Assembly: GCA_020632335.1 (NCBI GenBank)
Contig: JACKFV010000002.1
Coordinates: forward strand, 1-32,000
Direction: 5' to 3'
Length of the DNA stretch: 32,000 nucleotides
Source of the DNA: Candidatus Saccharimonadota bacterium
Lineage (GTDB): Bacteria > Patescibacteriota > Gracilibacteria > UBA4473
The notes under the pieces are model-generated. The model was given only the letters and a program-made list of their open reading frames with translations, had not been told where the DNA came from and made no database searches. Positions 3,022 to 31,645 of this stretch are shown here, one piece after another. The position numbers were made by a program, and so were the translations under genes. The first letter of the stretch is position 1, and each line of letters starts with the position of its first letter.

Positions 3022-4398
3022 TTACGAGAGCACGTAGGTCTCTCGCAGGTAGGGGAGGAGCTCGCGTACATGGTGGCGGGTCTGCTGCATGGTGTCGCGG
3101 TCACGCACGGTGACGGTGCCGCTCTCCAGCGTTTCATAGTCCACCGTTACGCAGGCGGGGGTACCGGCTTCGTCTTGGCGACGGTAGCGCTTGCCGATGC
3201 TCCCACTCTCGTCCATCACTCCATACCCCAGCGGGCTGAGTGATTGCCAGATCTCCTGGGCTTTTTCGCTCAGGCCGTCTTTCTTCATAAGGGGGAGCAC
3301 CGCTACCTTATAGGGAGATAGCTGCGCCGGTAGCTGCATCACCACCCGGGTAGAGCCATCATCAAGCGTTTCCTCGGTATAGCCGTGGTCCAGGAGTGCC
3401 AGCAGGTTGCGGTCTACCCCCCAGGTGGTCTCCACCACATGCGGTATGTACTGCTCGCCGGTGTGGGGGTCACGGTAGCGCAGGTCCTTACCACTGAGGG
3501 ACTGGTGCTGCGTGAGGTCAAAATCCGTGCGGTAGTGCAGCCCCATGATCTCCTTAGTGCCAAAGCTAAACCGAAACTCCCGGTCCTCGGCCTTCTGAGC
3601 ATAGTGGGCCAGCTTATCCGCCGGGTGCTCGTATACGCGGTAGTCACTGGGGGAGAAGCCGAGCGTTGCCAGCCAGGCGTCTTGCGCGGTGGCCCAGTCA
3701 GCGTAGATGCTCTGCCAGGTCTCGGGGCGGATGAAATGCTGGATTTCCATCTGCTCGAACTCCAGCCGACGGAAGAGGAAATTCCCGGGGGTGATCTCAT
3801 TGCGGAAGGCCCTGCCCTCATTCGCAATGGCGAAGGGCACCTGCACGCGCTGGGTCTGGGTGACATTCTTGAACTCGAGGAAGATGGCCTGTGCGGTCTC
3901 GGGCCGGAGGTATGCGGTGGAATCCTCGCCGGTTTTGCTCAGCTGGGTCTGGAACATGAGGTTAAACTTGCGTACTTCGGTGAGGTCCTCACTGCCACAG
4001 TGGGGACATCGTAGGTGGTGCTCGCGGATGATACCCGTGACGCGCTCGTCGCTCATGCCCTCGCAGTCTATGCCCAGCGCGTCCTCCACCAGGTGGTCTG
4101 CGCGGTGGCGGGCTTTGCAGGTCTTGCAGTCCACCATCTGGTCATTGAACCCCGCTACGTGCCCGCTGGCATGCCAGGTCTTGGGGTGGAGGATAATATC
4201 GCCCTCTATCCCCACCACGTCTGGCCGACGCTGAACAAAGGTCTGCCACCAGAGGTTTTTCAGGTTCTTCTTGAGCTCTACCCCCAGTGGCCCATAGCTG
4301 TAGGAGCCCGTGAGCCCGCCATAGATCTCACTCCCGGGGTAGACAAAGCCGGTGGATTTACAGAAGGAAACGAGGGTCTGGAGGTCCTTTACGGCCAT
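3022..4398 (-). CDS. glyQS: Glycine--tRNA ligase, dimeric (alpha2) class II type
   Basis: 458-aa ORF. The N-terminus FCKSTGFVYPGSEIYGGLTGSYSYGPLGVELKKNLKNLWW is diagnostic of GlyQS, and an anticodon-binding C-terminus is present. Confidence 0.95.
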   Translation of the reverse strand: MAVKDLQTLVSFCKSTGFVYPGSEIYGGLTGSYSYGPLGVELKKNLKNLWWQTFVQRRPDVVGIEGDIILHPKTWHASGHVAGFNDQMVDCKTCKARHRADHLVEDALGIDCEGMSDERVTGIIREHHLRCPHCGSEDLTEVRKFNLMFQTQLSKTGEDSTAYLRPETAQAIFLEFKNVTQTQRVQVPFAIANEGRAFRNEITPGNFLFRRLEFEQMEIQHFIRPETWQSIYADWATAQDAWLATLGFSPSDYRVYEHPADKLAHYAQKAEDREFRFSFGTKEIMGLHYRTDFDLTQHQSLSGKDLRYRDPHTGEQYIPHVVETTWGVDRNLLALLDHGYTEETLDDGSTRVVMQLPAQLSPYKVAVLPLMKKDGLSEKAQEIWQSLSPLGYGVMDESGSIGKRYRRQDEAGTPACVTVDYETLESGTVTVRDRDTMQQTRHHVRELLPYLRETYVLS

Positions 4399-4418: not shown

Positions 4419-4446
4419 AGTATGGTGACTTCTCTGGGCTTGTCGA
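4419..4446 (-). promoter_or_regulatory. Putative sigma70-type promoter of glyQS (TCGACA-N16-CATACT)
   Basis: On the minus strand, TCGACA lies at 4446..4441 and CATACT at 4424..4419, with a 16-nt spacer. The ATG follows 20 nt downstream. Confidence 0.45.
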
Positions 4447-4470
4447 GTGTATATTTTTTTATAAAAAGTA

Positions 4471-9204: not shown

Positions 9205-10118
9205 TAGAGACGGGCTAGGAGAGGGGAGACGTCGCGCGGGGTGACCTCTGCCCAGGGCTCGGTGCTGAGGTCTTTGCGGGTGGACTGGTAGTGGAGGTAC
9301 TCACTCTTCTGAGTAGTATTTGTGTACAATACACCCGTGTGGAAAGTGCCGTTTTTCGCATCCTCATGAGCTAGAATTAGGGCATCTGCATAGCTATTGA
9401 TATCATAATGTGTTCGGTTTTCTATCTGTCGGATACGCTCCCAGTAGTAGCTATTATCGGCCTCCTTGGCATAGGTGGGGCAGCTCTGCAGCACTTCTAC
9501 GCAGGCAAAGCCATGGTGGTGTATTCCGTGGCGAATAAGCTCTGTGAGCTGCTCCCGCTCCCCGCTAAAGCCGCGCGCGTAGAAGCTCGGCTCCAGACTC
9601 ATAATGAGCTGCATGGGGTGGAGCGGCCGCTGGGGTGTGTGCCCGTCCGTGGCCGAGCGTTTGGCGCCGCAGGGGGTCAGCGCCGATGGCTGCCCGGTGG
9701 TGAGGGCGTAGTTGTGGTTATTGTGGAGCAAAAAGACCAGGGGGTAGTCGCTGCGCACGGCGTGGACGAGGTGCCCGATGCCCTCTGAGAAGGTCGCGCC
9801 GTCGCCCGCCTGGGCAATTACCACGGTATTTGGCTGGGCGAGCTTGACCCCCGCGGCCAGTGGCAACACCCGCCCGTGCAGCCCGTGGAGCGTATTGGCG
9901 GTGATTTTATCGGCCTCGTTGCCGTTGCAGCCGATGTCATAGCAGAGGATGACGTCTTGCTGTGTGAGGTTCTCCAGCGCCAGAGCGTCGATAAGCGCGT
10001 TGCGAATGGCGTGGTTGCCACAGCCCGAGCACCAGGTTATTTTCTCTTGTGTCTCGTAAGAGTTTACGAGCGTGTTCTTTTCATAGAGCACTGTGTGCTG
10101 AGTATTTTTTATGTTCAT
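9204..10118 (-). CDS. 2-oxoacid:ferredoxin oxidoreductase, beta (TPP-binding) subunit
   Basis: WCSGCGNHAI together with the GDG...NN TPP motif (IAQAGDGATFSEGIGHL...LLHNNHNYALTTGQ). I took the start at the MNIKNT ATG (10118), which forms an ATGA overlap with the alpha-subunit stop. The longer ORF to 10283 has an Arg/Pro-rich, implausible N-terminus. Confidence 0.85.
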   Translation of the reverse strand: MNIKNTQHTVLYEKNTLVNSYETQEKITWCSGCGNHAIRNALIDALALENLTQQDVILCYDIGCNGNEADKITANTLHGLHGRVLPLAAGVKLAQPNTVVIAQAGDGATFSEGIGHLVHAVRSDYPLVFLLHNNHNYALTTGQPSALTPCGAKRSATDGHTPQRPLHPMQLIMSLEPSFYARGFSGEREQLTELIRHGIHHHGFACVEVLQSCPTYAKEADNSYYWERIRQIENRTHYDINSYADALILAHEDAKNGTFHTGVLYTNTTQKSEYLHYQSTRKDLSTEPWAEVTPRDVSPLLARL

Positions 10119-11848
10119 GAGTTGATATAGTGTTCGATATACTCGATGACTTCTTCTTGGTAGAAGGGTCGGCCGTCCCACTTGAGCAGTTTGCCGCGGA
10201 AGAGGGGGCCGCAGTGCTGCTCGATAAGCTGGCCGAACTGCCCGGTGGCATTGCCCTCGATGAGGTGGATTCTCCCCTTGCACTGCTCCTGGAGGGTGCT
10301 AATAGCCTTTGTATCGAGTGGGGAGAGGCAGGGGAAGTGCAGGTAGCCCACTTGTACACCTTTTATACTCATAAGGGAAATAACATCTTGCATAATATTT
10401 TTATTCGATCCAAAGCCAATGAAAGCTATATTTGGCTCTGGAGGACCTATATATTCTGGTGGTGGTATGAGGTGATCACGAATATGGTTCAGTTTTTGTA
10501 TCCTTTTTTTGTACATACTGCTGGCGACACTGGCGTCCTCAGTGAGGGTACCGTCGGGGGTATGCTCATCACTATTGGCGCAGAAGACAGAGGGTGCCTT
10601 TGTGGGTACCCAGCGGGGAGAGATACCACTCTCGGTGAGCTGATACCGCAGGCCGTGGGTGGGTTTCTCGGCTGCTACTGGGGGCTCTGCAGTGAGGTTT
10701 CGCTCTATGGGGAAGGCCTCTAGGCTGCTGGTCTCCACGGTGTAGAGGTGCTCGCAGATCTGTTTTTCGCTCAGCAGAATGACGGGCACCTGCGCCTGCT
10801 CGCTGATGTTGAGCGCGGTCTGGATGAGGGTAAAGCTGTCGGCGGGGTCACTCACGCTCAGCACCACGCGCGCGCCTTCGCCATGGCCGGCGTATAGAGC
10901 CAGGTGTACATCGCTCTGAGCAGTCCAGGTGGGGAGGCCTGTGGCCGGTCCGGGCCGCTGGCAGAGCACGATAACCAGTGGGGTCTCGGTGATCATCGCG
11001 AGGGAGAGAGTCTCGGTCATGAGGTCAAAGCCGCCCCCAGACGTAGCCGTGAGCGCCCGGGTACCGGCGTAGTTGGCGCCCAACACCAGGCTCACTGCGG
11101 TGATCTCGTCCTCGGCCTGTTTGACGATGAGGTTATAGGCGTCGGCGTATTCGGCCAGGTGCTTGAGGATGCCTGTGGAGGGGCTCATGGGGTAGGCCGC
11201 GTAGAGGCGCACCCCGGCCTGGATGGCTCCTAGAGCGATGGCGTGGTTGCCGGTGAGGAGGCTGAGGGGCGGATTCTGCGTAGGGGGGAGGAGGGATTTT
11301 TGCTGCTGGACGGCGCTATAGCCCCACTGCGCGCAGGTGAGATCGACCGCTAGGAGGGCGGGCTTACTCCCAAACTGCTGGGTGATTTCGCTCTCCAGTG
11401 CCGGCAGTGGCAGCCCCAGGGTCTTCCAGAGCATGCCGAGGAGGATCATATTCTTCACCAGTTCGGTGCCTCCCAGCTCCATGGCTTTCTCTCGGCTGCG
11501 CACGTGCACCACCTGTATGCGGCGGCGCTCACACTCGGCGAGCTCTGGCTGTATGCCGCTGAGGCGCTCGTAGCCGTGTACCAGGTAGCCCCCGTCTATG
11601 AGGCGTGGGAGGAAACTCTGCAGGCCGATTTTGCTGAGGGAGAGGAGGATATCACACCGCTGAGAGAGGCCGTAGAGAGGCTCATCGGCAAAGGAGACGC
11701 TATAGCTGGCATGCCCGCCCTGGATGAGACTGGGGAATTCTCGCTCGGTGACTACCCAATAGCCAAGGTTTTTCAGCGCTCGGGCGACGATCTCCCCCGT
11801 GCTGACGATGCCGCCGCCGCTCTCCCCCGCTATGAGTATGCGCTTCAT
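10115..11848 (-). CDS. 2-oxoacid:ferredoxin oxidoreductase, fused gamma-alpha subunit
   Basis: 577-aa ORF. The N-terminal gamma-like domain (ILIAGESGGGIVSTGEIVARAL) is followed by an alpha domain (GNHAIALGAIQAGVRLYAAYPMSPST). Substrate specificity cannot be assigned from sequence. Confidence 0.85.
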   Translation of the reverse strand: MKRILIAGESGGGIVSTGEIVARALKNLGYWVVTEREFPSLIQGGHASYSVSFADEPLYGLSQRCDILLSLSKIGLQSFLPRLIDGGYLVHGYERLSGIQPELAECERRRIQVVHVRSREKAMELGGTELVKNMILLGMLWKTLGLPLPALESEITQQFGSKPALLAVDLTCAQWGYSAVQQQKSLLPPTQNPPLSLLTGNHAIALGAIQAGVRLYAAYPMSPSTGILKHLAEYADAYNLIVKQAEDEITAVSLVLGANYAGTRALTATSGGGFDLMTETLSLAMITETPLVIVLCQRPGPATGLPTWTAQSDVHLALYAGHGEGARVVLSVSDPADSFTLIQTALNISEQAQVPVILLSEKQICEHLYTVETSSLEAFPIERNLTAEPPVAAEKPTHGLRYQLTESGISPRWVPTKAPSVFCANSDEHTPDGTLTEDASVASSMYKKRIQKLNHIRDHLIPPPEYIGPPEPNIAFIGFGSNKNIMQDVISLMSIKGVQVGYLHFPCLSPLDTKAISTLQEQCKGRIHLIEGNATGQFGQLIEQHCGPLFRGKLLKWDGRPFYQEEVIEYIEHYINS

Positions 11849-19151: not shown

Positions 19152-19187
19152 TGAAAAAAGTGCCCGCTCACAAGGAGTCAGGCACTT
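19152..19187 (-). terminator. Rho-independent terminator downstream of the MFS gene (possibly also serving ftsZ)
   Basis: On the minus strand, AAGTGCC (19187..19181) pairs with GGCACTT (19164..19158), with an internal CTC/GAG pairing. A T6 run follows, seen as the plus-strand A-run at 19154..19159. The element lies between the convergent ftsZ and MFS stop codons. Confidence 0.6.
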
Positions 19188-19195
19188 ATCACAGG

Positions 19196-20461
19196 TCATT
19201 GCGAGCGCGCAGGGGTATTTGTCTGATGCGCCGCAAAAGACACAGAGCCTCCCTGCCCACCATTATGGGGGGTCTTCCACATCTGTTTAATGGCGATGGC
19301 GCTGAGTACCAGCATGAGGAGAGCTGTGAGGAAATAGGCGGTCTGGAGGCTCCAGGTGTCGGTCATCAGGCCAAAGAGTGGCAGGTATAGCATCTGCGAT
19401 AGCTGCCCCATCAGTGATTTCATGCTGAGGGTGGTGGCGCGCTCTTGGCTGCGGGTATGCTCATGGATCACCCTATTGGTCCAGAGGGGGAAGAGTTCCC
19501 GTGGTATCTGGAAGATAGCGGGCAAGAGCACTGCCCAGAGCGGCGTTACCTCCAGCAGTGCCATGAGGAAAAAGCCGCCACACACGATGGCCACAATGCC
19601 CCAGGGCACCCTCTTCTCGCCCAGCAGCCGCATGAGCCAGGGGCTGAGCAGACTGCTCAGTGCCGCCAGCAGGTTATACCCCGCTAGCGCATAGCCGAAC
19701 CACACTATCGGCACATGGTGCACCTCCCAGTAAGGATTCAGCGTATGGAAGGAGAGTTTCATCCCCACGCCTATCCCCATGGCAAAGAGCATCAGCCACC
19801 ACACCAAGCGCGAGGATCGTAGCGTCCCCACTGCCCGGAGTGCGTAGCTGAGCATAGGGGGCCGTTCATGCGCGGCGTCATGGAGGCGCGGTTCTGTGAG
19901 CCACCACTGGAGCCCTGCTGTGATGACAGAGAACCCCAGGGCCACCCAGAGCAGACTGCGCATACCATAGTGGAGGGCGATAATGCCTGCCCCTGCAGTA
20001 GCCACCACAGCTGCAGCACGCTCAATGGTGCGGAGCCGGGAGGCGACCACGGGGTATCGCTCTCTCGCATTACCCTCCAGGAGAGAGTCTTAGAGCAGGG
20101 CGTCATCAGCACCGGACTCCAGCGCAAGCCCGAGTCCAGCAATTACCTGGCTCAGGATAATCCCCCCAAAGCTCTGTGAGAGCGCAAATAGCAGGATCCC
20201 TATAGCATGGATACCCCGCCCCAGTAGGAGCGATGTCCGCCGGCCGTACTTATCGGCTACGATGCCCGTGGGCACCTCCAGCAGCACAAGAGACGCCGCA
20301 AAGGCTGCCTCGCCCAGCATGACCTGCGTCATACTCATACCGATGAGCTGCAGCTGGTAGAGCACCATAATCGGCGCCCAGCAGTTCCCCAGCCCCATGA
20401 AGAGACTGGTCAGGTACAGCAGCGGGATATTCCGCAGGCTGCGCGTAGTTGTTGTTGTCAT
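19196..20461 (-). pseudogene. MFS transporter, a single 1266-nt reading frame interrupted by one in-frame TAA (20092..20090)
   Basis: ORFs 20090..20461 (MFS N-terminus with motif A GIVADKYGRR) and 19196..20050 (the remaining TM helices) are in the same frame. The 13 codons between them read DSLLEGNARERYP with no further stop. Confidence 0.6.
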
Positions 20462-20633
20462 AGTTTTCTAATTTTGAAGTGAAAAAATATGGAAGTAATA
20501 ATCGACACGAAGAAGCGTCAAAGACCAGATACCTCCCTACCAGTGTAGTGAGGTAAAGCGTTCTATAGTGACTACAGGGGGTAACCAGCGCCACTATGCT
20601 CTGGACTGTACTATAGGTTGTTAGACTTGTCAA
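20462..20633 (-). promoter_or_regulatory. Promoter (TTGACA-N17-TACAGT) plus a 143-nt leader upstream of the MFS gene; candidate cis-regulatory RNA (module A)
   Basis: On the minus strand, TTGACA lies at 20633..20628 and TACAGT at 20610..20605. The leader contains an 11-bp hairpin, TACCTCACTAC-ACTG-GTAGGGAGGTA (20555..20530). It ends in a TATTTTTTCAC box 17 nt before the ATG. It is homologous in layout and partly in sequence to 29072..29255. Confidence 0.5.
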
Positions 20634-20639
20634 GCGGTT

Positions 20640-22601
20640 TTACGCAGCGCCATAGAGGGAGAGCGTGCTGAGGAACTCTCGCTCAAAGTCCGCGGGGACG
20701 AGTGCTCCCACGGCGTAGTAGTCTATCTCGTGAGTTTTTTGGGCGTGGTAGCCTTCTCGCATTTGACGGTCAGTATGGGCTTGTCGCATGATCTGGGAGA
20801 AATCAAATACCTGGATATTGGCCCTGTAGCACGCGTCGAGGAAATGGTGCATGTCCTCTTGCGTCCCGGCGAGATTCACCATACCGTAGAAGCAGTCTGT
20901 GTAGTGTACCTGTCCATCAGCATCTTCAAGCGTATTAGCATGAAAGAGCGGCTGATGAGAGTGCCCCCCAATGCTGATACCCAGCTGTGCCAGAGCGTTC
21001 GCCATAGACCCCAGTGGTTTGCTAGGGTCAGCAATGACTACCACTTTCTTCCGTCGGTAGGCTTCCTCTGCTTCTCTATGAGAAAGCGGCGGCTTGTCTT
21101 CTTTCATCATGGGGAAGAGCACCACGTCACGCAGGTTCGGCTGGGTGGTGAGCAGCGCCACCAGGCGGTCTATACCCATGCCAAAGCCGGTCATCGGCGG
21201 CATACCGTGCTCCATTGCGGTGAGGAACTCCTCATTGACTTCCATGGCTTCCTCATCACCGGCGTCCTTGGCCGCGGCCTGCTCCTCCAGTAGCTGGCGT
21301 TGCGTGCGTGGGTCGATGAGCTCGCCATAGGCGTTCATGATCTCCCATCCGGCCAACACCAGCTGATAGCACTCGCTGGTACCGTCGCCATTAGGCCGCG
21401 CGAGGGGTTTGAGCTCCGTGGGGTAGTGCATCACATAGGTGGGTTGCACCAGGTGCGGGCGGGCTGATTTCTTATAGATGTAGTCCAGCAGGTTGGCGCG
21501 GCTGGTCTTCTCGGCCTCATTGGCGGGCAGATGGTACTGCTCTACGGCCATGGTACGCACCGTCTCATCACTGGCGGAGAAGATATCTAGCCCCGCGTGG
21601 ACCAGCAGCAGCTCGGCAAAGTTTACCTGCGGGAAGGCAGCGCTGGCGTCGATGAGTACGGGCTGGCCCTGCTTATCTAGCACGGTGAACTGCCGGGTAC
21701 CGAGGCACTCATCCAGCAGGGTGTGGAAGAGCCGCTGCATCTCTTGCATGCTCCAGTGCATGTCTTTATAGGCGGCGTACCACTCCAGCATGGTGAATTC
21801 TTGCAGGTGTGAGGGGTCAGTGCCCTCATTCCGGAAGCATTTGCCGATCTCATACACCCGCTCGAACCGGCCCGTCATGGCGAGTTTATGGTCTATCTCC
21901 AGCGCAATGCGCAGCACCATAGGGGTATCCAGCGCGTTGTGGTGCGTCTCAAACACCCTGGCCAGCGCTCCGCCGGTTTGTAGGCCAAGGGTGCGCGTCT
22001 CTATCTCGGTGAAGTCTCGCTCGTCGAGGAAGCGGCGTATGGTGCGGATCACCTTACTCCGCAGCTGGAACCGCGCATAGGTATCCTCATTACTCAGCAG
22101 GTCTAGGTAGCGCTGGCGGTAGCTGGCCTCGGTATCCGTCAGGCCGTGGAACTTCTCTGGTAGTGGCAGCAGGGCCTTACTCAGTGGAGTGATGGTGCGT
22201 GCCATGAGCGTGGGTTCGCCTTTCCTCGTGATGAAGAACTCGCCACCAAAGCCACAGAAGTCCCCCATATCTAGCAGGCGGAGCATCTGCGGCATAGTGT
22301 CACCCAGGACCTCCCCATTCAGGCAGATCTGCAGGCTGCCACTGGCGTCTTGCAGCCGGAGGAAGGCGAGCTTGCCCATCTCGCGCATCTGCGTGATCCT
22401 CCCACAGACTCGCGCCGCATCATGGCAGTCGGCCGTCACCGCCTCCACGGGCCTGAGAGGTTCTCTCTCACACACAGTAATGGCCTGTAGCGCGGTGTGC
22501 GTGCGGTCGTAGTGCTTGGCATAGGTATAGCCGAGGAGCTGCTGCCAGGCCTCGGCTTTCTGTAGGCGGACGGTGCGCTGGTCTCGGGCGTGGGTGGTCA
22601 T
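20640..22601 (-). CDS. lysS: Lysine--tRNA ligase (class II) with an additional C-terminal domain of about 150 aa
   Basis: OB-fold N-domain, class II motifs (FRNEG, GFGMGIDRLV) and a canonical end at ...LRDVVLFPMMK, followed by 153 extra residues. The start at the MTTHARDQ ATG (22601) is supported by CATACT exactly 6 nt upstream. The longer ORF to 22769 overlaps the divergent promoter. Confidence 0.9.
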   Translation of the reverse strand: MTTHARDQRTVRLQKAEAWQQLLGYTYAKHYDRTHTALQAITVCEREPLRPVEAVTADCHDAARVCGRITQMREMGKLAFLRLQDASGSLQICLNGEVLGDTMPQMLRLLDMGDFCGFGGEFFITRKGEPTLMARTITPLSKALLPLPEKFHGLTDTEASYRQRYLDLLSNEDTYARFQLRSKVIRTIRRFLDERDFTEIETRTLGLQTGGALARVFETHHNALDTPMVLRIALEIDHKLAMTGRFERVYEIGKCFRNEGTDPSHLQEFTMLEWYAAYKDMHWSMQEMQRLFHTLLDECLGTRQFTVLDKQGQPVLIDASAAFPQVNFAELLLVHAGLDIFSASDETVRTMAVEQYHLPANEAEKTSRANLLDYIYKKSARPHLVQPTYVMHYPTELKPLARPNGDGTSECYQLVLAGWEIMNAYGELIDPRTQRQLLEEQAAAKDAGDEEAMEVNEEFLTAMEHGMPPMTGFGMGIDRLVALLTTQPNLRDVVLFPMMKEDKPPLSHREAEEAYRRKKVVVIADPSKPLGSMANALAQLGISIGGHSHQPLFHANTLEDADGQVHYTDCFYGMVNLAGTQEDMHHFLDACYRANIQVFDFSQIMRQAHTDRQMREGYHAQKTHEIDYYAVGALVPADFEREFLSTLSLYGAA

Positions 22602-22607
22602 GCGCGC

Positions 22608-22664
22608 AGTATGCGGATTCCTGCCCTGCTGGCAAGTTGACCGGGGGGAGTTTGCCGCTAGGGT
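22608..22664. promoter_or_regulatory. Back-to-back divergent leaderless-type promoters of lysS (minus) and the DUF1653 gene (plus)
   Basis: Minus strand: TTGCCA (22635..22630)-N16-CATACT (22613..22608)-GCGCGC-ATG (22601). Plus strand: TTGACC (22637..22642)-N16-TAGGGT (22659..22664)-AGGGGT-ATG (22671). Confidence 0.55.
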
Positions 22665-22670
22665 AGGGGT

Positions 22671-22907
22671 ATGAGAGAGACTCTGCCGGCGCTGGAGACT
22701 CGGGTGGTCCCCGGCACCTACCGCCACTATAAGGGGAGGCTCTATGAGGTCATCGGCATGGGCCACCACAGCGAGACATTGGAGGTGCTGGTGTTCTATC
22801 GGTCACTGGCGGAGGGGACGCTCTGGGCACGGCCAGCCAGTATGTGGAGCGAAATGGTGGAGTGGGAGGGGCAGCAGTGCCGGCGCTTCACCCGGGTGGA
22901 GGAATGA
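22671..22907 (+). CDS. DUF1653-domain protein
   Basis: 78-aa ORF. GTYRHYKGRLYEVIGMGHHSETLEVLVFYRSL...LWARPASMW matches my recollection of the DUF1653 pattern (Y.HYKG..Y.V...A.HSET.E..V.Y..L...W.RP..MF). Confidence 0.75.
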   Translation: MRETLPALETRVVPGTYRHYKGRLYEVIGMGHHSETLEVLVFYRSLAEGTLWARPASMWSEMVEWEGQQCRRFTRVEE

Positions 22908-22918
22908 GTAGGCACGGG

Positions 22919-22956
22919 AAAAAGGTACTTACTCACATGAATAAGCACCTTTTTTT
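22919..22956. terminator. Bidirectional rho-independent terminator
   Basis: GGTACTTA (22924..22931) pairs with TAAGCACC (22942..22949) with one mismatch. The hairpin is flanked by A5 on the left and T7 on the right. It lies between the DUF1653 gene and the convergent orphan ORF. Confidence 0.6.
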
Positions 22957-23031: not shown

Positions 23032-23466
23032 TCATTTCTCGATCGGATAGTAACCAGGCTCGTATTGGTTTTTTTCGACACATTCTATTATGGTCGATAT
23101 AGCAGACAGACTACATTTTTTTGCTCTATTAACATCAGTGAAAGAACCGCCACTTACCCTATAATATGGTCTAGGTAGTATTATATCATCTTTGTGTGGT
23201 TCTAGAAGAGTAGCTAGTCGTGCCCTCAGTGCCGTTTTCTCTATCCGATTGCCGTTTTCTGTATCTACTACAATCTCTAGGAATGTGTACTGTGCTGTTC
23301 CCAAAAGAATAGTTGTTATTGGGTGACAGACTTCGTAAATGACTACATGAACTTCTAGGCCTTTTAGAGCTAGTTGTTCGTAGAACTTTTTTATTATTTT
23401 TTCTTTGTAATCATTAGGGGTAAAAATTCTTTGTAGCCATGAGGCTACTGTCATAAAAAATTTCAT
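23032..23466 (-). CDS. Hypothetical protein (orphan, encoded in an AT-rich islet)
   Basis: It is the only long ORF in the AT-rich segment at about 22910..23660. The 144-aa sequence is protein-like (MKFFMTVASWLQRIF...) and matches no family I recognise. Confidence 0.5.
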   Translation of the reverse strand: MKFFMTVASWLQRIFTPNDYKEKIIKKFYEQLALKGLEVHVVIYEVCHPITTILLGTAQYTFLEIVVDTENGNRIEKTALRARLATLLEPHKDDIILPRPYYRVSGGSFTDVNRAKKCSLSAISTIIECVEKNQYEPGYYPIEK

Positions 23467-23648
23467 ATTTTTTTTGGTTTTAATGAATGAAGAAATATCC
23501 CAACTCGCAGCAATGCTGCCAGCTGAGCTATTTCCTCATCATTTCCTCTTCCGCTATATAAGAGAGCCAGCACCCCACCACAGTGGGACGCAGCCTCACA
23601 ATAACCCATATATATATATTGTCAAGTGTTTGTGGGGGAGAATCTCAC

Positions 23649-23676
23649 TTGCATAGCAGGCTCTTTGTAGCATACT
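23649..23676 (+). promoter_or_regulatory. argS promoter, leaderless type (TTGCAT-N16-CATACT, then 6 nt to the ATG)
   Basis: TTGCAT lies at 23649..23654 and CATACT at 23671..23676, followed by GCGGCT and the ATG at 23683. Confidence 0.55.
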
Positions 23677-23682
23677 GCGGCT

Positions 23683-25356
23683 ATGCAAGACGCTCTGCGC
23701 ACGGTGATTCGGCAGTCTCTGGGGGAGGAAATCGCGCTCGGGGTAGAGCTGCGGCCGGTGCCGGCGCATGCGGAGGGAGACATCGCGCTGACGTGTTTCT
23801 CGCTCGCTAAGGCGCTGCGGCAGAGTCCGGTGGCGATCCTCCAGCAAGTACAGACCGCGCTGGAGCCCCTCCCCTGGGTAGAGAAGCTGGACGCGCAGGG
23901 GCCCTACCTCAACATCACTTGCAGCGCGGCGTGGTACTTTGCGCAGGTGCTCTCTACGCCTGTAGCCTCTCAGCAGTTTAGCGGGCGGCACATTGTGCTG
24001 GAGTTCTCCTCCCCGAATACCAACAAACCCCTGCACCTGGGGCATATGCGCAATAACGCGCTGGGCGACAGCCTGGTGCACCTGCTGCGGGCTAATGGGG
24101 CGGCGGTGACGGCAGTGAGTATCATCAATGACCGGGGGACGCACATCTGCAAGTCGATGCTGGCCTATGAGATAGCAGGAGACGGCGCGACGCCGGCCAG
24201 TACCGGGCGCAAACCAGACCACCTGGTGGGCGACTACTATGTGCTCTTTAGCACGCTAAAGGACGAGGGACGGCTGACTGACGAGGGCGCGCAGGCTATG
24301 CTACAGGCCTGGGAGGCAGGTGATAAGAGCGTACGAGCGCTCTGGGAGCTGATGAATGGCTGGGTGTATGAGGGCTGGAACAAGACCTACGCGCGCCAGG
24401 GGGTGACCTTTGACAAGTGGTACTATGAGTCGGCGCACTATGAAGACGGTAAGCAGCTGGTGGCCGACGGACTGCGCAGGGGGGTATTTACTACACTGGC
24501 AGATGGCGCTATAGCGGCGGACCTCACCGCGGACGGCTATGACCAGAAGATCGTCCAGCGGGCTGATGGTACCAGTATCTACATTACGCAGGACCTCGCA
24601 CTGGCCGTGGCGCGCTATAACGAGTGGCACCCCGACGAGCTCATCTACATCACTGACTACCGTCAGGCCTACCACTTTGAGGTGCTCTTCCTCCTGCTGG
24701 AGAAGCTGGGGCTGCTGAGCCGGGAGCACCTGACGCATATTGGCTATGGTACGATGGAGCTGACCACGGGCAAGATGAGCAGCCGTACGGGCCATGTGGT
24801 GCACGCTGATGACCTGATGGATGAGCTCTCAGCGCTGGCGCGGGAGGAGATACTGGCCCGGCACGACGACTGGGACGCGCAGCAGGTCTCTCTCACGGCG
24901 GAGCAGATCATGAATGCGGCGTGGAAGTACTACATCCTCAGCGTGACGCCCGAGCGTAATATGGTGTATGACGCGGCGGCTAGTGTGCGGTTTGAGGGTG
25001 CTACGGGGCCGTATATACAGTATGCGGGGGTGCGGATCCGTCGGCTGCTGGAGAAATCGGGGGGGTATGATGCCACAACTGCGCCAGTGCTGGGAGGCGA
25101 AGAACGGGCTCTGGGGGCGCTTATTCTCCAGTGGGGAGCCGTGCTGGAGTCCGCCGGCCGTGACCGCAACCCTACCACAGTGGCTACTTATATCCTCGAG
25201 CTGGCACAAGAATGGAGCCGCTACTACAGTAGTGTACGGATCTTAGACGCTGCGGAGCCGGTGCGCAGTAGCCGCCTGCAGCTGGCTGAGAAGACCCTGG
25301 AGGTGCTGGTGGCGGGGCTCTCTATCCTCGGGATACCGGTGCCAGAGGCGATGTAG
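23683..25356 (+). CDS. argS: Arginine--tRNA ligase
   Basis: 557-aa ORF with the class I HIGH motif (SSPNTNKPLHLGHMRN), a KMSK-like GKMSSRTG, and a DALR anticodon-binding C-terminus ending in ...GIPVPEAM. Confidence 0.95.
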   Translation: MQDALRTVIRQSLGEEIALGVELRPVPAHAEGDIALTCFSLAKALRQSPVAILQQVQTALEPLPWVEKLDAQGPYLNITCSAAWYFAQVLSTPVASQQFSGRHIVLEFSSPNTNKPLHLGHMRNNALGDSLVHLLRANGAAVTAVSIINDRGTHICKSMLAYEIAGDGATPASTGRKPDHLVGDYYVLFSTLKDEGRLTDEGAQAMLQAWEAGDKSVRALWELMNGWVYEGWNKTYARQGVTFDKWYYESAHYEDGKQLVADGLRRGVFTTLADGAIAADLTADGYDQKIVQRADGTSIYITQDLALAVARYNEWHPDELIYITDYRQAYHFEVLFLLLEKLGLLSREHLTHIGYGTMELTTGKMSSRTGHVVHADDLMDELSALAREEILARHDDWDAQQVSLTAEQIMNAAWKYYILSVTPERNMVYDAAASVRFEGATGPYIQYAGVRIRRLLEKSGGYDATTAPVLGGEERALGALILQWGAVLESAGRDRNPTTVATYILELAQEWSRYYSSVRILDAAEPVRSSRLQLAEKTLEVLVAGLSILGIPVPEAM

Positions 25357-25734: not shown

Positions 25735-27573
25735 CTAGCGTTTGCGCCGGTATTTATTCCTCCGCTGGGCATGGCGTGTAGTACGCTGGGTCTTGCGGAA
25801 GCGCTTCCGGCTGGAGATCTTCCCTCGTAGACGCTTTCTCTCCCGCTTGCTCAGCAGCTCCCAGGGGATATCTCCCCCTACCTGGACGGTATCTTGCGGG
25901 TTATCACTAACGTAATGGGGGTTGTGCCCAGCGGCGTAGTCACGCTGCTGGTGGGTGAGCTTTGCTGATTTGGGGGTGAGTTTTGGCGTGGTGGCGCGTG
26001 TGTGGCGGCTCTGCTTAGCGCTGGTGAGGGTGGTGTTCTCCGTCATTTGCTCGGTGTTGGGGAGCGCAATATCATCACGCTCGTAGTGCTGAGAGAGCAT
26101 ACAATAGCTCGTTGCGGGCATATAGCGGGCGCTTACGGGGTTGAGCTCAGCCGTACGGCGCCAGGATTTTTCGGGGCCCAGCTCCCAGATCTCCCCGGGG
26201 CAGGGCGCCGCGATGTAGCTCCGTTGGAGGGATTTGAGGTCTCCCAGGTCGCGCATGTAGCTCTGCATGACGTCCGACTCACCATGGACGAGGAAGAGCT
26301 GCTGGGGGCTGCCGGTGCGGTCTGCAAACCGCAGCAGATCATCATGCCCTGCATGCCCGCTAAACGCCCGAACGATCATCACCTCCGCGCGGACTTCATA
26401 GGGATTCCCGAAGATATTCACGACTTTCTCGCCGTCTACTATCTTGCGCCCCAGGGTATTCTCGGCCATGAACCCCACTACCAATACGAGATTCTTGGGG
26501 TCTCCCATATGGTTGGCCAGGTGGTGCTTTATTCGGCCGGCCTCGCACATGCCACTGGCAGAGATGATAATGCAGCTGCCGGGGAAGTCGATGAGCTTCT
26601 TAGATTCCTCTACGTCAGTGATGTAGTGCACGCCATCTACCTCGGCAAAGGGGGCAATACCGCTCTCCAGCATGCGCTGGAACTCGGCGTCAAATTCTCC
26701 TCGGTGCAGGCGGAAGATCTCTGTAGCGCGTACCGCCAGCGGGCTATCTACAAAGATGGGGATATCTGGTAGGGTGCCCGCGCGCTGCATCTCTCGGAAG
26801 ATATACAGTACCTCCTGCGTGCGCCCCACGGCAAATGCCGGGATAATGATCTTCCCGCCGCGCTCCGCTACCGCACGGATTTTCTCGGTGATAGCGCCCT
26901 CCACGTCACGGATTTCATCATGGTTGCGGTTCCCGTAGGTCGACTCGGTAATGAGCACGTCCAGGTCTCGCAGCTGCTTGGGGTTCTTGAGGATGGGGAT
27001 GTCGCGCCGCCCTAGGTCCCCCGTGAACCCCAGCCGCACCGTCTGGCCGGTGTCATCGTCTTGCAGGGTTATCTCCTCCATCGCCGCGCCGAGGATATGC
27101 CCCGCGTCGTGGAAGGTCACCTCCATCCCCGGTACTGGGCTGAAGGCCTGGCCGAATTCCACACTGCGGAAGAGCGTCATCGTCTTCTCGGCGTCCTGCA
27201 TATCGTAGAGCGGCTCTACCTCTGGGTTTTGCTGCTGGAGCTTGATAAAGTCATAATCGCTCTCTTGTATATGCGCGGCGTCTGGCAGCATAATGGAGCA
27301 GAGATCGCGCGTGGCGTGGGTGGAGTAGATGGGCCCCGTATAGCCGTACTTGGCCAGCAGTGGCAGCAGCCCCGAGTGGTCTATGTGCGCGTGGCTGAGC
27401 ACCACCGCGTCCAGCTCATCCGCGTCAAAGGGGAAGTGCCGGTTGGCGGTATCGGCCTCTGTGCGACGACCCTGGAAGAGCCCACAGTCCAGCAGTACCT
27501 TCTTCCCGTTGATGTGCAGGAGGTGCTTGGACCCGGTGACGTTCTGTGCGGCGCCGCTAAACTCTATACGCAT
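25735..27573 (-). CDS. Beta-CASP / metallo-beta-lactamase-fold ribonuclease (CPSF/RNase J-like) with a long basic C-terminal tail
   Basis: MRIEFSGAAQNVTGSKHLL, the MBL motif LSHAHIDHSG and beta-CASP motifs (ESTYG, ...VHGE). About 145 low-complexity residues follow, ending in KRERKRLRGKISSRKRFRKTQRTTRHAQRRNKYRRKR. Confidence 0.85.
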   Translation of the reverse strand: MRIEFSGAAQNVTGSKHLLHINGKKVLLDCGLFQGRRTEADTANRHFPFDADELDAVVLSHAHIDHSGLLPLLAKYGYTGPIYSTHATRDLCSIMLPDAAHIQESDYDFIKLQQQNPEVEPLYDMQDAEKTMTLFRSVEFGQAFSPVPGMEVTFHDAGHILGAAMEEITLQDDDTGQTVRLGFTGDLGRRDIPILKNPKQLRDLDVLITESTYGNRNHDEIRDVEGAITEKIRAVAERGGKIIIPAFAVGRTQEVLYIFREMQRAGTLPDIPIFVDSPLAVRATEIFRLHRGEFDAEFQRMLESGIAPFAEVDGVHYITDVEESKKLIDFPGSCIIISASGMCEAGRIKHHLANHMGDPKNLVLVVGFMAENTLGRKIVDGEKVVNIFGNPYEVRAEVMIVRAFSGHAGHDDLLRFADRTGSPQQLFLVHGESDVMQSYMRDLGDLKSLQRSYIAAPCPGEIWELGPEKSWRRTAELNPVSARYMPATSYCMLSQHYERDDIALPNTEQMTENTTLTSAKQSRHTRATTPKLTPKSAKLTHQQRDYAAGHNPHYVSDNPQDTVQVGGDIPWELLSKRERKRLRGKISSRKRFRKTQRTTRHAQRRNKYRRKR

Positions 27574-27586
27574 ACCCCCAGTCTAG

Positions 27587-27613
27587 CAAAAAATACCCCG
27601 CCATGCGAGGTAT
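27587..27613 (-). terminator. Terminator-like hairpin downstream of rplY
   Basis: On the minus strand, ATACCTCGC-ATG-GCGGGGTAT forms a 9-bp stem with one G.U pair (27613..27593). It is followed by a U-rich tract, TTTTTGC. It lies only about 14 nt upstream of the ribonuclease ATG. Confidence 0.45.
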
Positions 27614-28304: not shown

Positions 28305-28386
28305 CTCATAGACATATCTGCGCTGGTGTCAAGGGAGTCTGCTGCGTTTACCCTGGCTTGACACCAGCCCCCAGATAGCCACTATG
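28305..28386. promoter_or_regulatory. Divergent rplY / trmD promoters whose -35 boxes lie in a perfect 12-bp inverted repeat
   Basis: Minus strand: TTGACA (28332..28327)-N16-TATGAG (28310..28305). Plus strand: TTGACA (28358..28363)-N16/17-CACTAT/ACTATG (28380..28386). The inverted repeat pairs GCTGGTGTCAAG (28322..28333) with CTTGACACCAGC (28357..28368). Confidence 0.5.
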
Positions 28387-28392
28387 CGGGGT

Positions 28393-29064
28393 ATGCGATT
28401 CGACGTGCTGACGCTCTTCCCCGAGGCCTTCCAGAGCTTTCTCACCACGTCTATCATCGGCCGTGCAGTGGCGGCAGGGCATATAGAGGTGGTGCTGCAT
28501 GACATCCGCGACTATAGCACTGACAAGCACCGCAAGGTAGACGACGTGCCCTACGGTGGTGGCGCGGGCATGGTGATACTCTGCCAGCCGCTCTTTGCCG
28601 CCATAGAGGCCGTGAAGGCCCTGGCAGATGACCACGCGCCGGTCATCTACCTCACGCCTCAGGGGCTAGCACTGACGCAGCAGCGCTGTGAGGAGTATGT
28701 AGAACAACGCCAGCTGCAGCGGATGATACTGCTGTGCGGGCACTACGAGGGCATAGACGAGCGCGTGCGGGAGGCTCTGGTAGATGAGGAACTCCGCATA
28801 GGGGACTATGTGCTCAGTGGTGGGGAGCTGCCTGCGCAAGTGCTGATGGATAGCCTGGCGCGGCTGGTACCCGGGGTACTGGGCAATGATGCGAGCGCCA
28901 AGGAGGAGAGCTTCAGCTTGGCACTGGGGCGCGCACAGGAGTACCCCCATTACACCCGGCCGGCGGAGTACCAGGGTATGCGCGTGCCTGAGGTGTTGCT
29001 CAGTGGCCACCATGCCGAGATAACCGCCTGGCGACTGGCCCATGTGCGCCAGGGGAGAGATTAA
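28393..29064 (+). CDS. trmD: tRNA (guanine37-N1)-methyltransferase
   Basis: MRFDVLTLFPEAF, DDVPYGGGAGMV, LCGHYEGIDERV and the SIGDYVLSGGE-like IGDYVLSGGELPA are present. The ORF-track start at 28384 overlaps the predicted -10. The ATG at 28393 fits a leaderless start. Confidence 0.9.
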   Translation: MRFDVLTLFPEAFQSFLTTSIIGRAVAAGHIEVVLHDIRDYSTDKHRKVDDVPYGGGAGMVILCQPLFAAIEAVKALADDHAPVIYLTPQGLALTQQRCEEYVEQRQLQRMILLCGHYEGIDERVREALVDEELRIGDYVLSGGELPAQVLMDSLARLVPGVLGNDASAKEESFSLALGRAQEYPHYTRPAEYQGMRVPEVLLSGHHAEITAWRLAHVRQGRD

Positions 29065-29073
29065 TAGCGGCTT
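29064..29073 (+). repeat. Left copy of the 10-bp direct repeat ATAGCGGCTT flanking the AT-rich cassette
   Basis: An identical 10-mer occurs at 30153..30162. The two copies bracket the low-GC segment. Confidence 0.5.
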
Positions 29074-29255
29074 GACAAGTTGAAAGGTTTGTAGTACAGT
29101 GCCGGTATTAGTGCGATATGCCGGAGAGGGGAGAGAGGAAAAACGCTCTACCCCTTGCTCTTTGAAATAAAATGTGACCCATAGAATCGTTCCCTCAGCC
29201 GCTGTAGAGCGTTTGTGGTAACTATTTTTTTCACATATAAAAACATACATTAATT
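29072..29255 (+). promoter_or_regulatory. Promoter (TTGACA-N17-TACAGT) plus a 155-nt leader; candidate cis-regulatory RNA (module B)
   Basis: TTGACA lies at 29072..29077 and TACAGT at 29095..29100. The leader has a CCGGTAT/ATGCCGG hairpin. It also has alternative pairings of ACGCTCTAC (29142..29150) with GTAGAGCGT (29204..29212). It ends in a TATTTTTTTCAC box. Confidence 0.5.
29223..29241 (+). repeat. Box TA-T7-CACATATAAA, copy 1 (14 nt upstream of the gene 1 ATG)
   Basis: It recurs as TA-T6-CACATATAAA at 29632..29649, 15 nt upstream of the GTG at 29665. Confidence 0.6.
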
Positions 29256-29630
29256 ATGAGTATTATCTGTTTGTGTTTGCTGGCTTTAGGCCTGTTTGTT
29301 TTGTACCTATTATTGCGCTACTTCACTTATCGTGTTGTATTAGAAAGCACTATTGATCTCTCTGAGATGGCTAATCATTCCCTTGGGTCCTCATTGTCGT
29401 GGCCTGATTTTACTGCCCTTGGAGTGACAGGATCGGGGAAGTGTACTCTTCTGGAGTGCTCTACTTCAGATGACAAGGCTATGATTAAGGTGAGATATTT
29501 TTATCGAATACTGAAAAATGGTATTCCTGTGCTAGTAATACTTACTGAGAAAGAACAGAACCATAATGACTCGGTGACATTGATTATCGAGAGAAACATC
29601 TTTGGTCAGTATAAAGGTTCTATTATCTAA
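29256..29630 (+). CDS. Hypothetical small protein with an N-terminal TM anchor (AT-rich cassette, gene 1)
   Basis: 124-aa ORF. The N-terminal hydrophobic segment IICLCLLALGLFVLYLLL is followed by a soluble domain of about 95 aa. I recognise no family. Confidence 0.5.
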   Translation: MSIICLCLLALGLFVLYLLLRYFTYRVVLESTIDLSEMANHSLGSSLSWPDFTALGVTGSGKCTLLECSTSDDKAMIKVRYFYRILKNGIPVLVILTEKEQNHNDSVTLIIERNIFGQYKGSII

Positions 29631-29631
29631 T

Positions 29632-29649
29632 TATTTTTTCACATATAAA
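29632..29649 (+). repeat. Box TA-T6-CACATATAAA, copy 2
   Basis: It is identical to 29223..29241 apart from one T in the T-run, and it sits in the same position relative to the next ORF. Confidence 0.6.
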
Positions 29650-30117: not shown

Positions 30118-30134
30118 AATTAACGAATACTATA

Positions 30135-30167
30135 AGCTGCTATTCACTGTGGATAGCGGCTTTTTTT
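30135..30167. terminator. Bidirectional rho-independent terminator between cassette gene 2 and der
   Basis: AGCTGCTAT (30135..30143) pairs with ATAGCGGCT (30153..30161) in a 9-bp stem with one G.U pair. It is followed by T7 on the plus strand and by UUAUAGUAUU on the minus strand. Confidence 0.65.
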
Positions 30168-30173
30168 CTGTCT

Positions 30174-31595
30174 CTACTCACTGTCGTTATCTCGCAGGGT
30201 GAGCTTTATCGGCGTACCGTGGAAGCCATACTGCTTGCGCAGGGCGTTCTCTATATAGCGCTTGTAGGTGCGGTGGAAGGCCTTTGTGGTATTCACATGG
30301 ATGACAAAATGCGGTGGCGAGACGCTCACCTGCGCCATATATTTCATCTTGCCCTGGCGGTTCTGGTAGCTGGGCTGCACATGCCCGTAGTAGATCTCGG
30401 GCAGGAACTGGTTGAGCTCAGAGGTAGAGATGCGCTTGCGGCGCTCGGCTTGTACGTTACGGGCATTCAGCAGGAGGGTCTGCGTGCCCTTGCCGGTGTG
30501 TGCGGAGAAGAACACCACCGGGGCCCACCGCGCAAAGCCGATCTTCACCCCCATGTAGTGCAGGTAGCGGCGCTTGATATCGTTGAGGTCCTCGCCCCAC
30601 ATCTTCACCTCGGCTAGCTCTCGGTCATCTGACTCCTCCTCGGTACGGCTTTTTTCGTATACCAGGTCAAATTTATTCACCCCCAGTATGAGCCCCTTGC
30701 CGGCGTCTACTACCTCGCCGATGATGGTGAGGTCCTGGTGCGTGACCCCGTCCAGAGCGTCTAGCATGACGATGCACACGTCACTCCGCTCAATGGCCTG
30801 ACGGGTACGCACCGTGCTCCAGTACTCCAGAGATCTCCCTACCTTGCCCTTCTTCCGCAGTCCGGCGGTGTCGATGAGGACGTATTCATGCCCCTCAGCG
30901 TCGGTGTAGGGGGTGTCGATACTATCGCGCGTGGTGCCAGAGACCTCGCTCACAATGCTGGCGTGCGAGCCTAGCAGCTGGTTCGTGAGCGAGCTCTTGC
31001 CCACGTTGGGCCTCCCGAGGAAGCACAGCCGCAGCGGAGCGGTCTCGTCTGGGGTGGGGGCGGTAGTGCGCAGGGCCGGGTAGCCGCGCTGGGTGAGTAG
31101 CTGCTCGAGCTCCTCCTCCATGGCCGCTACGCCGTACCAGTTTTTACCGCTCACGGTATGTGGCATCCCAAAGCCCATCTCCGTCCATTGCAGCACGCGG
31201 GCCTCGTTGCCGTCGTCTATTTTGCTAGCGAGGAAGAGAAAATCCTTACCAGATTTGCGCACCATATCCGCCACCAGGTGGTCCTCACTGGTGGGGTCCT
31301 TCGTCCCGTCTACCATAAATAGCAGCACATCGGCCTGGCTGAGCGCGAGCTTGGCCTGGGTCTGGATCTCCTGCTCCAGGCTGTCACCATCGTTATTGGT
31401 CAGCCCAGCGGTGTCGATGAGCAGATACGCGTGCTGCTCGCCCTCTACTTTCATCACCACGCGGTCACGGGTCGTCCCGGCAATCTCGCTCACAATGCTG
31501 CGCTTCTCTCCCGCCAGAGCGTTGAAAAGCGTACTCTTACCGACGTTCGGCCGGCCGATAATGGCGACTTGTGGCAGGGCGTGGAGGGGCTGCAT
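30174..31595 (-). CDS. der: Ribosome-associated GTPase Der (EngA)
   Basis: Two tandem GTPase domains (IIGRPNVGKSTLFN and FLGRPNVGKSSLTN, each with DTAG) plus a KH-like C-terminus. TATACT lies exactly 6 nt upstream of the ATG. Confidence 0.95.
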   Translation of the reverse strand: MQPLHALPQVAIIGRPNVGKSTLFNALAGEKRSIVSEIAGTTRDRVVMKVEGEQHAYLLIDTAGLTNNDGDSLEQEIQTQAKLALSQADVLLFMVDGTKDPTSEDHLVADMVRKSGKDFLFLASKIDDGNEARVLQWTEMGFGMPHTVSGKNWYGVAAMEEELEQLLTQRGYPALRTTAPTPDETAPLRLCFLGRPNVGKSSLTNQLLGSHASIVSEVSGTTRDSIDTPYTDAEGHEYVLIDTAGLRKKGKVGRSLEYWSTVRTRQAIERSDVCIVMLDALDGVTHQDLTIIGEVVDAGKGLILGVNKFDLVYEKSRTEEESDDRELAEVKMWGEDLNDIKRRYLHYMGVKIGFARWAPVVFFSAHTGKGTQTLLLNARNVQAERRKRISTSELNQFLPEIYYGHVQPSYQNRQGKMKYMAQVSVSPPHFVIHVNTTKAFHRTYKRYIENALRKQYGFHGTPIKLTLRDNDSE

Positions 31596-31645
31596 AGCCG
31601 CAGTATAGGGGGGAAAGAGGGGCTGTACAGCCCTTGTGTGATGAA

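Follow-up and report, generated by a model that had tools for sequence, protein, structure and literature searches.

Two similar promoter and leader modules before unrelated genes in a Gracilibacteria contig: a possible case of expression-module reuse

What do two closely similar promoter-plus-leader segments do in front of two unrelated transcription units of one bacterium? The question is raised by the first 32,000 nucleotides of contig JACKFV010000002.1 (GenBank assembly GCA_020632335.1, Candidatus Saccharimonadota bacterium, Gracilibacteria), here called the window. In this stretch module A precedes a transporter gene of the MFS family on the minus strand, and module B precedes an AT-rich cassette of two open reading frames (ORFs) on the plus strand. 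A preliminary description, made from the letters alone, took the two for homologous copies of a new cis-regulatory RNA. Its observations are partly confirmed: the promoter, the spacing and a box before the start codon are real and non-random, but the leader alignment is not. The modules are probably homologous by descent because the promoter, one short in-register block and the box, which are the parts that appear to have been kept, are each similar beyond chance and collinear. The idea of a new regulatory RNA is not supported, as the leaders have no shared fold and no alignable middle. In the reading preferred here, to which about an even chance is given, A and B are paralogous expression modules, each made of a promoter, a 5′ untranslated region (5′UTR) and a start region independent of the Shine-Dalgarno (SD) sequence, and not sensing RNAs. 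Counts of module copies in this genome refer to the ~32 kb of the window.

Module A lies between lysS and the co-directional MFS gene (19196-20461, minus strand), with ftsZ convergent beyond the latter. Module B follows trmD (28384-29064, plus strand) and leads into the AT-rich stretch with the two ORFs, beyond which der is convergent. Both modules all but abut the upstream coding sequence: the -35 hexamer begins 6 nt past the lysS stop codon (20642..20640) in A and 7 nt past the trmD stop codon (29062-29064) in B. Judged by the features of a sigma-70-type promoter (TTGACA, a spacer of 16-18 nt and TAnnnT), each of the two reads TTGACA, 17 nt, TACAGT (Table 1), and the TACAGT hexamer resembles the TAnAnT boxes of leaderless genes in the window.

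The near-identical extended promoter reported in the preliminary description is unique to these two sites. The string TTGACAAGT-N11-TAGTACAGT occurs only at 20633..20605 on the minus strand and at 29072..29100 on the plus strand, with 0 occurrences expected in the window, and its extended form CTTGACAAGT-N9-T-N-TAGTACAGT likewise gives two matches against 0 expected (20634..20605, minus; 29071..29100, plus). Across 52 aligned nucleotides, from 7 nt before the -35 hexamer to 16 nt after the -10 hexamer and with the TTG and TA...T positions excluded, 26 of the 46 non-core positions are identical (binomial p≈7e-6). As a control, the TTG-N20-TAnnnT sites of the window form 44 other pairs, whose identities average 11.6±3.5 and reach at most 17. 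The promoters of A and B are more alike than two good promoters need be. The distance from the -10 hexamer to the ATG, exactly 143 nt in A and 155 nt in B, is as first reported. Transcription from these putative promoters would start near 20598 and 29107.

Part of this likeness may reflect a habit of the lineage. The sequence CTYGACAAGY occurs three times in the window (0.27 expected) and again after lysS in a relative, L017. The third site in the window, CTCGACAAGC at 4438-4447 on the minus strand, is an extended -35 element before the gene at 3022-4398 and is preceded by an A/T-rich, UP-like stretch, which suggests that this lineage favours an AAG following the -35 hexamer. A scan for the promoter pattern in 185,579 species genomes, a reference collection without the source species, returned nine matches, and IMG/VR returned three; these occur at about the chance rate, in unrelated taxa and ahead of unrelated downstream sequence. 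As for signs of movement, no flanking direct or inverted repeats were found around the modules, and neither the modules nor the cassette showed phage or plasmid similarity.

The other conspicuous shared piece is the box that stands shortly before the start codon. The exact 9-mer TTTTTTCAC occurs three times in the window, and each time a start codon follows 17-22 nt downstream. Two of these, 17 and 21 nt before the starts of the MFS gene and ORF1, were correctly placed in the preliminary description; the third (29634-29642), before ORF2 and here called B′, was missed. The copies before ORF1 and ORF2 have an identical 16-mer, TTTTTTCACATATAAA, in common, and 24 of 32 positions agree between those of A and ORF2. 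When the boxes of A and B are anchored at their start codons, 10 of 12 positions agree (p≈0.014), and comparison of the last 45 nt gives p≈0.006 for A against B′ and p≈0.003 for B against B′. The ORF2 copy lies inside a polycistronic unit, with no promoter or hairpin ahead of it (z +0.2). The third box therefore indicates that the element goes with start codons and not with one leader. By its placement it behaves like a start-site signal rather than part of a leader-specific aptamer, and it would act in translation initiation.

In front of ftsZ, which is also an internal cistron, TTTTTTCAA stands 21 nt before the ATG. When an nhmmer profile of the three boxes was run against the window and the relatives' loci, it picked up no additional one. 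A proximal leaderless promoter hidden inside the box was also considered, and it was rejected on inspection of the sequence, where the spacing of the -10-like hexamers to the start codons is inconsistent.

Between promoter and box, little is shared. MAFFT aligns one 12-nt block ~41 nt past the -10 hexamer, of which 10 of 12 positions are identical at an offset of -1 (p≈0.007 in shuffles with offsets limited to ±3); within it, ACGCTYTAC forms the 5′ strand of a helix in both leaders. This alignment pairs the A segment AGAACGCTTTAC with B 29140, in place of the B 29181 segment first proposed as its partner. The alignable 3′ half of the preliminary description, which corresponds to the best local alignment of the two leaders, is no better than dinucleotide shuffles (score 11 against 9.2±1.5; p≈0.16, within 0.15-0.17). 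Similarity beyond the promoter in the middle of the leaders is likewise at chance: with the last 45 nt removed, the shuffle test gives p≈0.29 for local and 0.44 for global alignment, and the ~90 nt of leader between the conserved pieces are not alignable.

The folds do not agree either. Leader A has a minimum free energy (MFE) of -34.1 kcal/mol (z -2.4) and leader B one of -39.1 kcal/mol (z -2.9). The RNAalifold consensus of the two consists of 10 scattered pairs and reaches -3.4 kcal/mol, compared with -34 and -39 when each leader is folded alone, which means no shared fold in a comparison that, with two copies, has very low power. Each leader carries a terminator-like hairpin of its own kind. 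Hairpin H3 of A (-7.5 kcal/mol, z -3.6) has a 7-bp stem and the tail UUAUUACUU, with a U6 run 14 nt from the stem, and the hairpin of B at 29183-29228 (-13.3 kcal/mol, z -2.7) has an imperfect 17-bp stem that runs into U7. The 11-bp hairpin described earlier for A does exist, with 10 bp and one A·G mismatch. The 9-bp long-range pair described for B, ACGCTCTAC (29143-29151) with GTAGAGCGT (29204-29212), is genuinely complementary and would break the top of the terminator-like stem, but its use in a fold costs 9 kcal/mol relative to the MFE structure.

Searches for known RNA families were negative. Rfam 15 gave 0 matches at the gathering threshold over the whole window, and leaders A and B returned only noise at E≤10 (13-15 bits against thresholds of 45-70); the preliminary description had recognized no known riboswitch class in them. 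A tRNA scan found none, and inspection by eye for LexA boxes and similar operators gave no candidate that fitted. Leader A holds GGGAGG inside a hairpin and a 17-codon, TTG-started frame whose end lies 7 nt ahead of the ATG. Since the lineage lacks SD/anti-SD pairing, this GGGAGG probably does not serve as a ribosome-binding site, and a leader-peptide or SD-sequestering reading of A was rejected for that reason.

Long leaders are unusual in this window, as the preliminary description held, and many first genes appear to be leaderless. A -10-like hexamer ends 5-8 nt before the start codon in 8 of 29 candidate genes. In at least six genes, namely der, argS, lysS, the DUF1653 gene and those at 25735-27573 and 10115-11848, a -10 box stands exactly 6 nt before the start (TATACT, CATACT twice, TAGGGT, TAGACT and TAGAGT; background 9%, p≈0.003); examples of the architecture are found at 31595-31611, 23667-23685, 22601-22616 and 27573-27588. 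No SD-like 4-mer lies at -16 to -4 in any of the 29 candidate genes, where ~3 are expected. This SD-free, leaderless style agrees with the listing of Ca. Peribacter riflensis as SD-scarce, with a 16S rRNA that lacks the CCUCC anti-SD core and with SD sequences at 7% of its genes (PMC10783764, Table 4). The window has a G+C content of ~60%, in line with the 58.5% given for complete Peribacteria genomes (PMC4736985). In SD-less Bacteroidetes, an A at -3 and low structure tune initiation (PMC6847099). Such an A is present in modules A, B and C (module C is described below), and in ORF2 and ftsZ its place is taken by C.

The preferred reading builds on the sequence matches with their statistical tests, on two leaders that share no fold, on the third box and on the leaderless, SD-free surroundings, and it would divide each module into four parts. 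A near-consensus sigma-70-type promoter, with the extended -35 element GCTTGACAAGT, a 17-nt spacer and TAG-TACAGT, would begin 6-7 nt past the end of a housekeeping gene that is read in the same direction. It would be followed by a 5′UTR of 143 or 155 nt whose sequence may have diverged to noise save for one 12-nt block, then by a hairpin and a U-rich tract that differ in each copy, and finally by a U-rich, then A-rich start-proximal element, TATTTTTT(T)CAC-N17-22-start. Together these parts would supply transcription and SD-independent ribosome loading to genes that have no promoter at their own start codon; the need for such a module would arise because many first genes are leaderless and no gene uses SD. 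The genes served would be the MFS gene, now probably a pseudogene, and a two-gene, AT-rich cassette that may have been acquired horizontally, with the box repeated before its second cistron. Significantly similar upstream regions thus stand before non-homologous genes, the pattern by which reused promoters are recognized, and promoter reuse of this kind has been documented (Matus-Garcia, Nijveen & van Passel 2012; PMC3575422).

Table 1. Coordinates of the modules, their parts and neighbouring features in the window
Feature	Position	Strand	Details
Module A promoter	20605..20640	-	TTGACA 20633..20628, 17-nt spacer, TACAGT 20610..20605 preceded by TAG
Module A 5′ leader, 143 nt	20462..20604	-	5′ hairpin 20597..20565; H2 20555..20530; terminator-like H3 20521..20502 with U-rich tail
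In-register block A, AGAACGCTTTAC	20553..20564	-	Partner in B 29140-29151; MAFFT
Box in A, TATTTTTTCAC	20479..20489	-	17 nt before MFS ATG at 20461
MFS (DHA3-like) transporter gene	19196..20461	-	Pfam MFS_1; terminator 19185..19154
Module B promoter	29065..29100	+	TTGACA 29072-29077, 17-nt spacer, TAG, TACAGT 29095-29100
Module B 5′ leader, 155 nt	29101..29255	+	Purine/pyrimidine hairpin ~29123-29161; terminator-like 29183-29228
In-register block B, AAAACGCTCTAC	29140..29151	+	MAFFT
Box in B, TATTTTTTTCAC	29223..29234	+	21 nt before ORF1 ATG at 29256
Cassette ORF1, 124 aa	29256..29630	+	N-terminal hydrophobic segment; orphan
Third box copy B′, TATTTTTTCAC	29632..29642	+	22 nt before ORF2 GTG at 29665
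Cassette ORF2, 150 aa	29665..30117	+	MCB9809932.1 / H6771_03090; N-terminal hydrophobic segment; orphan
Intrinsic terminator closing cassette	30134..30167	+	Convergent with der
Module C	23467..23625	-	TTGACA-(AT)6GGGT-TATTGT, 131-nt leader, hairpin, A-rich stretch to ATG
Lysine-tRNA ligase-DUF2000 fusion (lysS)	20640-22601	-	100% identical to MCB9809924.1
der	30174-31595	-	Convergent with cassette terminator

The genes after modules A and B are functionally unrelated, an MFS pseudogene on one side and orphan membrane proteins on the other. The MFS gene matches Pfam MFS_1, with weak TetA(P)/DHA3-like matches, and is interrupted at 20092..20090 by an in-frame TAA, at a position occupied by Tyr or Phe in eight homologues (motif SGADxALL[YF]DSL). 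An identical truncated product of 123 aa is found at NCBI (H6771_03045) and in an independent Logan assembly, and the gene is probably a pseudogene. Its closest homologues are only 38-42% identical, and their upstream regions bear no resemblance to module A. In the cassette region the G+C content falls to 33%, in a genome of ~60%. ORF1 found only a spurious repeat-protein match among 1.8 billion representatives, and a search of 5.8 billion proteins with ORF2, for which NCBI also chose the GTG start at 29665, returned no homologue but the protein itself. The proteins of the cassette and of module C obtained no significant hit in Pfam, PHROGs, PADLOC or NCBIfam, nor any phage, defence or plasmid match.

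Several smaller observations concern these genes and their neighbours. Counting of the locus tags from H6771_03045 to 03090 suggests that NCBI has left either ORF1 or the module C ORF unannotated. The terminators at 19154-19185 (minus), 30134-30167 (plus) and ~22910-22955 (minus, downstream of module C) are weakly alike (ATAAG..TGC...GCGGC-T6, p≈0.01-0.02 against shuffles), which could be a generic likeness or could reflect shared 3′ ends. The fusion of DUF2000 to the C-terminus of lysine-tRNA ligase (LysRS) is common to many Peregrinibacteria/Gracilibacteria homologues, some of which carry further C-terminal domains. The longest lysS ORF (20640-22769, minus) extends 56 codons upstream of the annotated ATG at 22601 and overlaps the divergent DUF1653 gene; this extension is probably an ORF artefact.

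Looser relatives of the modules exist in the window and outside it. Module C stands before an AT-rich ORF (23466..23032, 36% GC) that encodes a 144-aa orphan, and its leader folds very stably (z -6.3). Its hairpin (23543..23482, ~62 nt) reaches -34.5 kcal/mol (z -8.1) and has TATTTCTTC as its 3′ arm. This hairpin also contains GCTCAGCTGG, which resembles a tRNA D-arm, and the (AT)n run in the module C spacer is a repeat type that could alter spacer length by slippage.

Outside the window, L017, L018 and L024 (Joint Genome Institute, Ga0163109/Ga0163110) represent one species whose LysRS is 64% identical to that of the window. In L017 (5888-6383), GCTTGACAAGT starts 4 nt past the lysS stop codon and the -35 hexamer 6 nt past it, as in the window; the spacer and -10 region, AGTG(AT)5CAGG-TATTGT, differ from those of A. 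The unit that follows is ~430 nt long and AT-rich, contains no ORF of more than 33 aa, folds with z -7.0 and ends in a terminator before truB; it may be a noncoding RNA or small-peptide locus. Rfam gave no match to this unit, and across L015-L017 it matched only rRNA, in L016. L017, the single related sequence found in another genome, keeps the -35 region and the box and not the leader, and its own leader is not alignable with that of A (p 0.3). Among ten lysS flanks from metagenomes, only this species keeps the promoter; in relatives whose LysRS C-termini are 51-62% identical, lysS is followed by other genes.

Module C and L017 resemble each other more closely (local p≈0.007, global p≈0.01). 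The L017 hairpin (-32.5 kcal/mol, z -8.5) is similar to that of C; both have the lower stem GAG(U)GAAAUA/UAUUUC and end ~20 nt upstream of an ATG. Common to modules A, B and C and the L017 unit are CTTGACAA, a TATTT(T/C) box and an A-rich stretch that continues to an ATG. With only four sequences to go by, these features suggest a wider, loosely connected group of heads for the AT-rich units of this lineage.

If these four are taken as members of one Peribacteria family of cassette heads, the promoter, leader, hairpin or box and A-rich start would form a regulated, SD-independent switch. A strong CTTGACAA-type promoter abutting a housekeeping stop codon would then be followed by a structured leader of ~130-155 nt, a hairpin with UAUUU(U/C) as its 3′ arm or tail, and an A-rich start region, and such heads would drive AT-rich orphan genes while attenuating them or being processed by RNase III. 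This is distinctly unlikely as an account of A and B. The narrower idea of an undescribed family of attenuators or riboswitches, in which hairpin and U-run are a terminator and an alternative pairing responds to a ligand, a protein or the ribosome, is unlikely too, but several observations favour it and weigh against the preferred reading. Both leaders fold somewhat better than shuffles, a hairpin and U-rich tract lie just upstream of the start region in each of them and also in C and L017, as in a transcription attenuator, and leader B has mutually exclusive helices, of which the 9-bp one would disrupt the terminator-like stem. The conserved block ~41 nt past the -10 hexamer, a helix strand in both leaders, is given no role in the preferred reading. 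The unpaired probability at positions -35 to -1 is 0.57 in A and 0.61 in B′ and falls to 0.33 in B and 0.28 in C, and the notion of an unstructured landing pad is not uniformly supported because the ensembles predicted for the latter two leave the box partly base-paired. Against a regulatory leader family stand the lack of a common structure and of sequence similarity in the leader middle, the empty Rfam search, the 9 kcal/mol cost of the alternative fold in B and the distance of the U-run from the stem in A. The box also recurs before ORF2 without a hairpin, the downstream genes have no common function, one of them being a pseudogene, and the further copies that the preliminary description would have predicted in relatives were found neither in the 185,579 species genomes nor in IMG/VR nor in the ten lysS flanks.

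The concentration of identity in the 52 nt that span the promoter, beyond what consensus promoters share, could also mark an operator. One factor would bind a segment that holds the palindromic CTTGACAAG, which as read off the sequence is a 9-bp palindrome, and TAGTACAGT and that extends as far as TAGTG, ~9-13 nt downstream of the -10 hexamer; A and B would form a small regulon in which the leaders are irrelevant. The excess of CTYGACAAGY in the window and its return after lysS in L017 fit this proposal, but both the third site (4447..4438) and that of L017 are followed by other -10 regions, so that the shared part may be a preferred extended -35 element. The same 18 specified bases also occur at about the chance frequency before unrelated genes in unrelated phyla, and no regulator gene adjoins either unit, which leaves the operator a rather improbable explanation. 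Convergence of two independent, near-optimal promoters and AT-rich pre-start regions, alike by chance or through selection for strength, would agree with the chance-rate occurrence of the promoter string across unrelated genomes and with the non-significant local alignment of the leaders. It is nevertheless very unlikely: the 26 of 46 matches include spacer and discriminator positions with no known effect on promoter strength, the collinear block and the box are each significant, and the overall lengths are similar. The least probable of the alternatives is that the leaders are independent small RNAs of ~105-130 nt that end at the U-run, with the ORFs expressed by read-through or from weak proximal promoters. 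The layout of strong promoter, structured RNA, hairpin and U-tract suits such RNAs, as does the L017 promoter at the head of a structured, terminated unit with no sizeable ORF, but the hairpins of A and B are weak as terminators, no small-RNA family matches, the putative RNA bodies are not conserved between A and B, and the box recurs before ORF2, where no small RNA would end.

If A and B are paralogous expression modules, they would represent ordinary promoter and 5′UTR reuse in a little-studied lineage of the candidate phyla radiation (CPR), and their value would be mainly descriptive. The U-rich box ~20 nt before the start of a few leadered cistrons would be a concrete candidate for an element of ribosome loading on leadered mRNAs in largely leaderless, SD-free organisms. 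If they were instead attenuators, they would constitute the first Peribacteria-specific class of cis-regulatory leaders and would offer a handle on how reduced genomes control AT-rich acquired genes.

Compared with known systems, the modules resemble attenuation leaders and riboswitches with terminator platforms in that a long 5′UTR follows a strong promoter, a hairpin and U-tract precede the start codon, and competing helices are possible in B. Unlike these, they show no conserved aptamer-like core and match no Rfam family, their downstream genes are unrelated, and the terminator-like elements of A and B are weak. Leader-peptide (ribosome-mediated) attenuation is known for drug-efflux and resistance genes such as tetA(L), ermC and cat. 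Module A recalls it by preceding a DHA3-like MFS efflux homologue and by its GGGAGG-bearing hairpin and 17-codon TTG frame, but it belongs to a lineage without SD/anti-SD pairing, and neither B nor B′ has an equivalent upstream ORF.

U-rich S1-binding enhancers are known elements of SD-independent initiation. The start regions of the modules resemble the SD-independent initiation regions described elsewhere (PMC6847099, PMC10783764) in their lack of an SD sequence, their A-rich stretch before the start, the A at -3 in A, B and C, and a pyrimidine- or U-rich tract 17-30 nt upstream that is repeated before an internal cistron. They differ in that the box TATTTTTTCAC is undescribed and, in B and C, predicted to be partly base-paired. 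From the reused, putatively mobile promoters (PMC3575422) the modules differ in extent and number: identity covers only ~52 nt and two short blocks and not the whole upstream region, and there are two known copies, or four with the looser pair of C and L017. With those promoters they share similar 5′ regions before non-homologous genes in one genome, with no insertion sequence or other mobile element attached and with the regulatory part seemingly copied apart from its gene.

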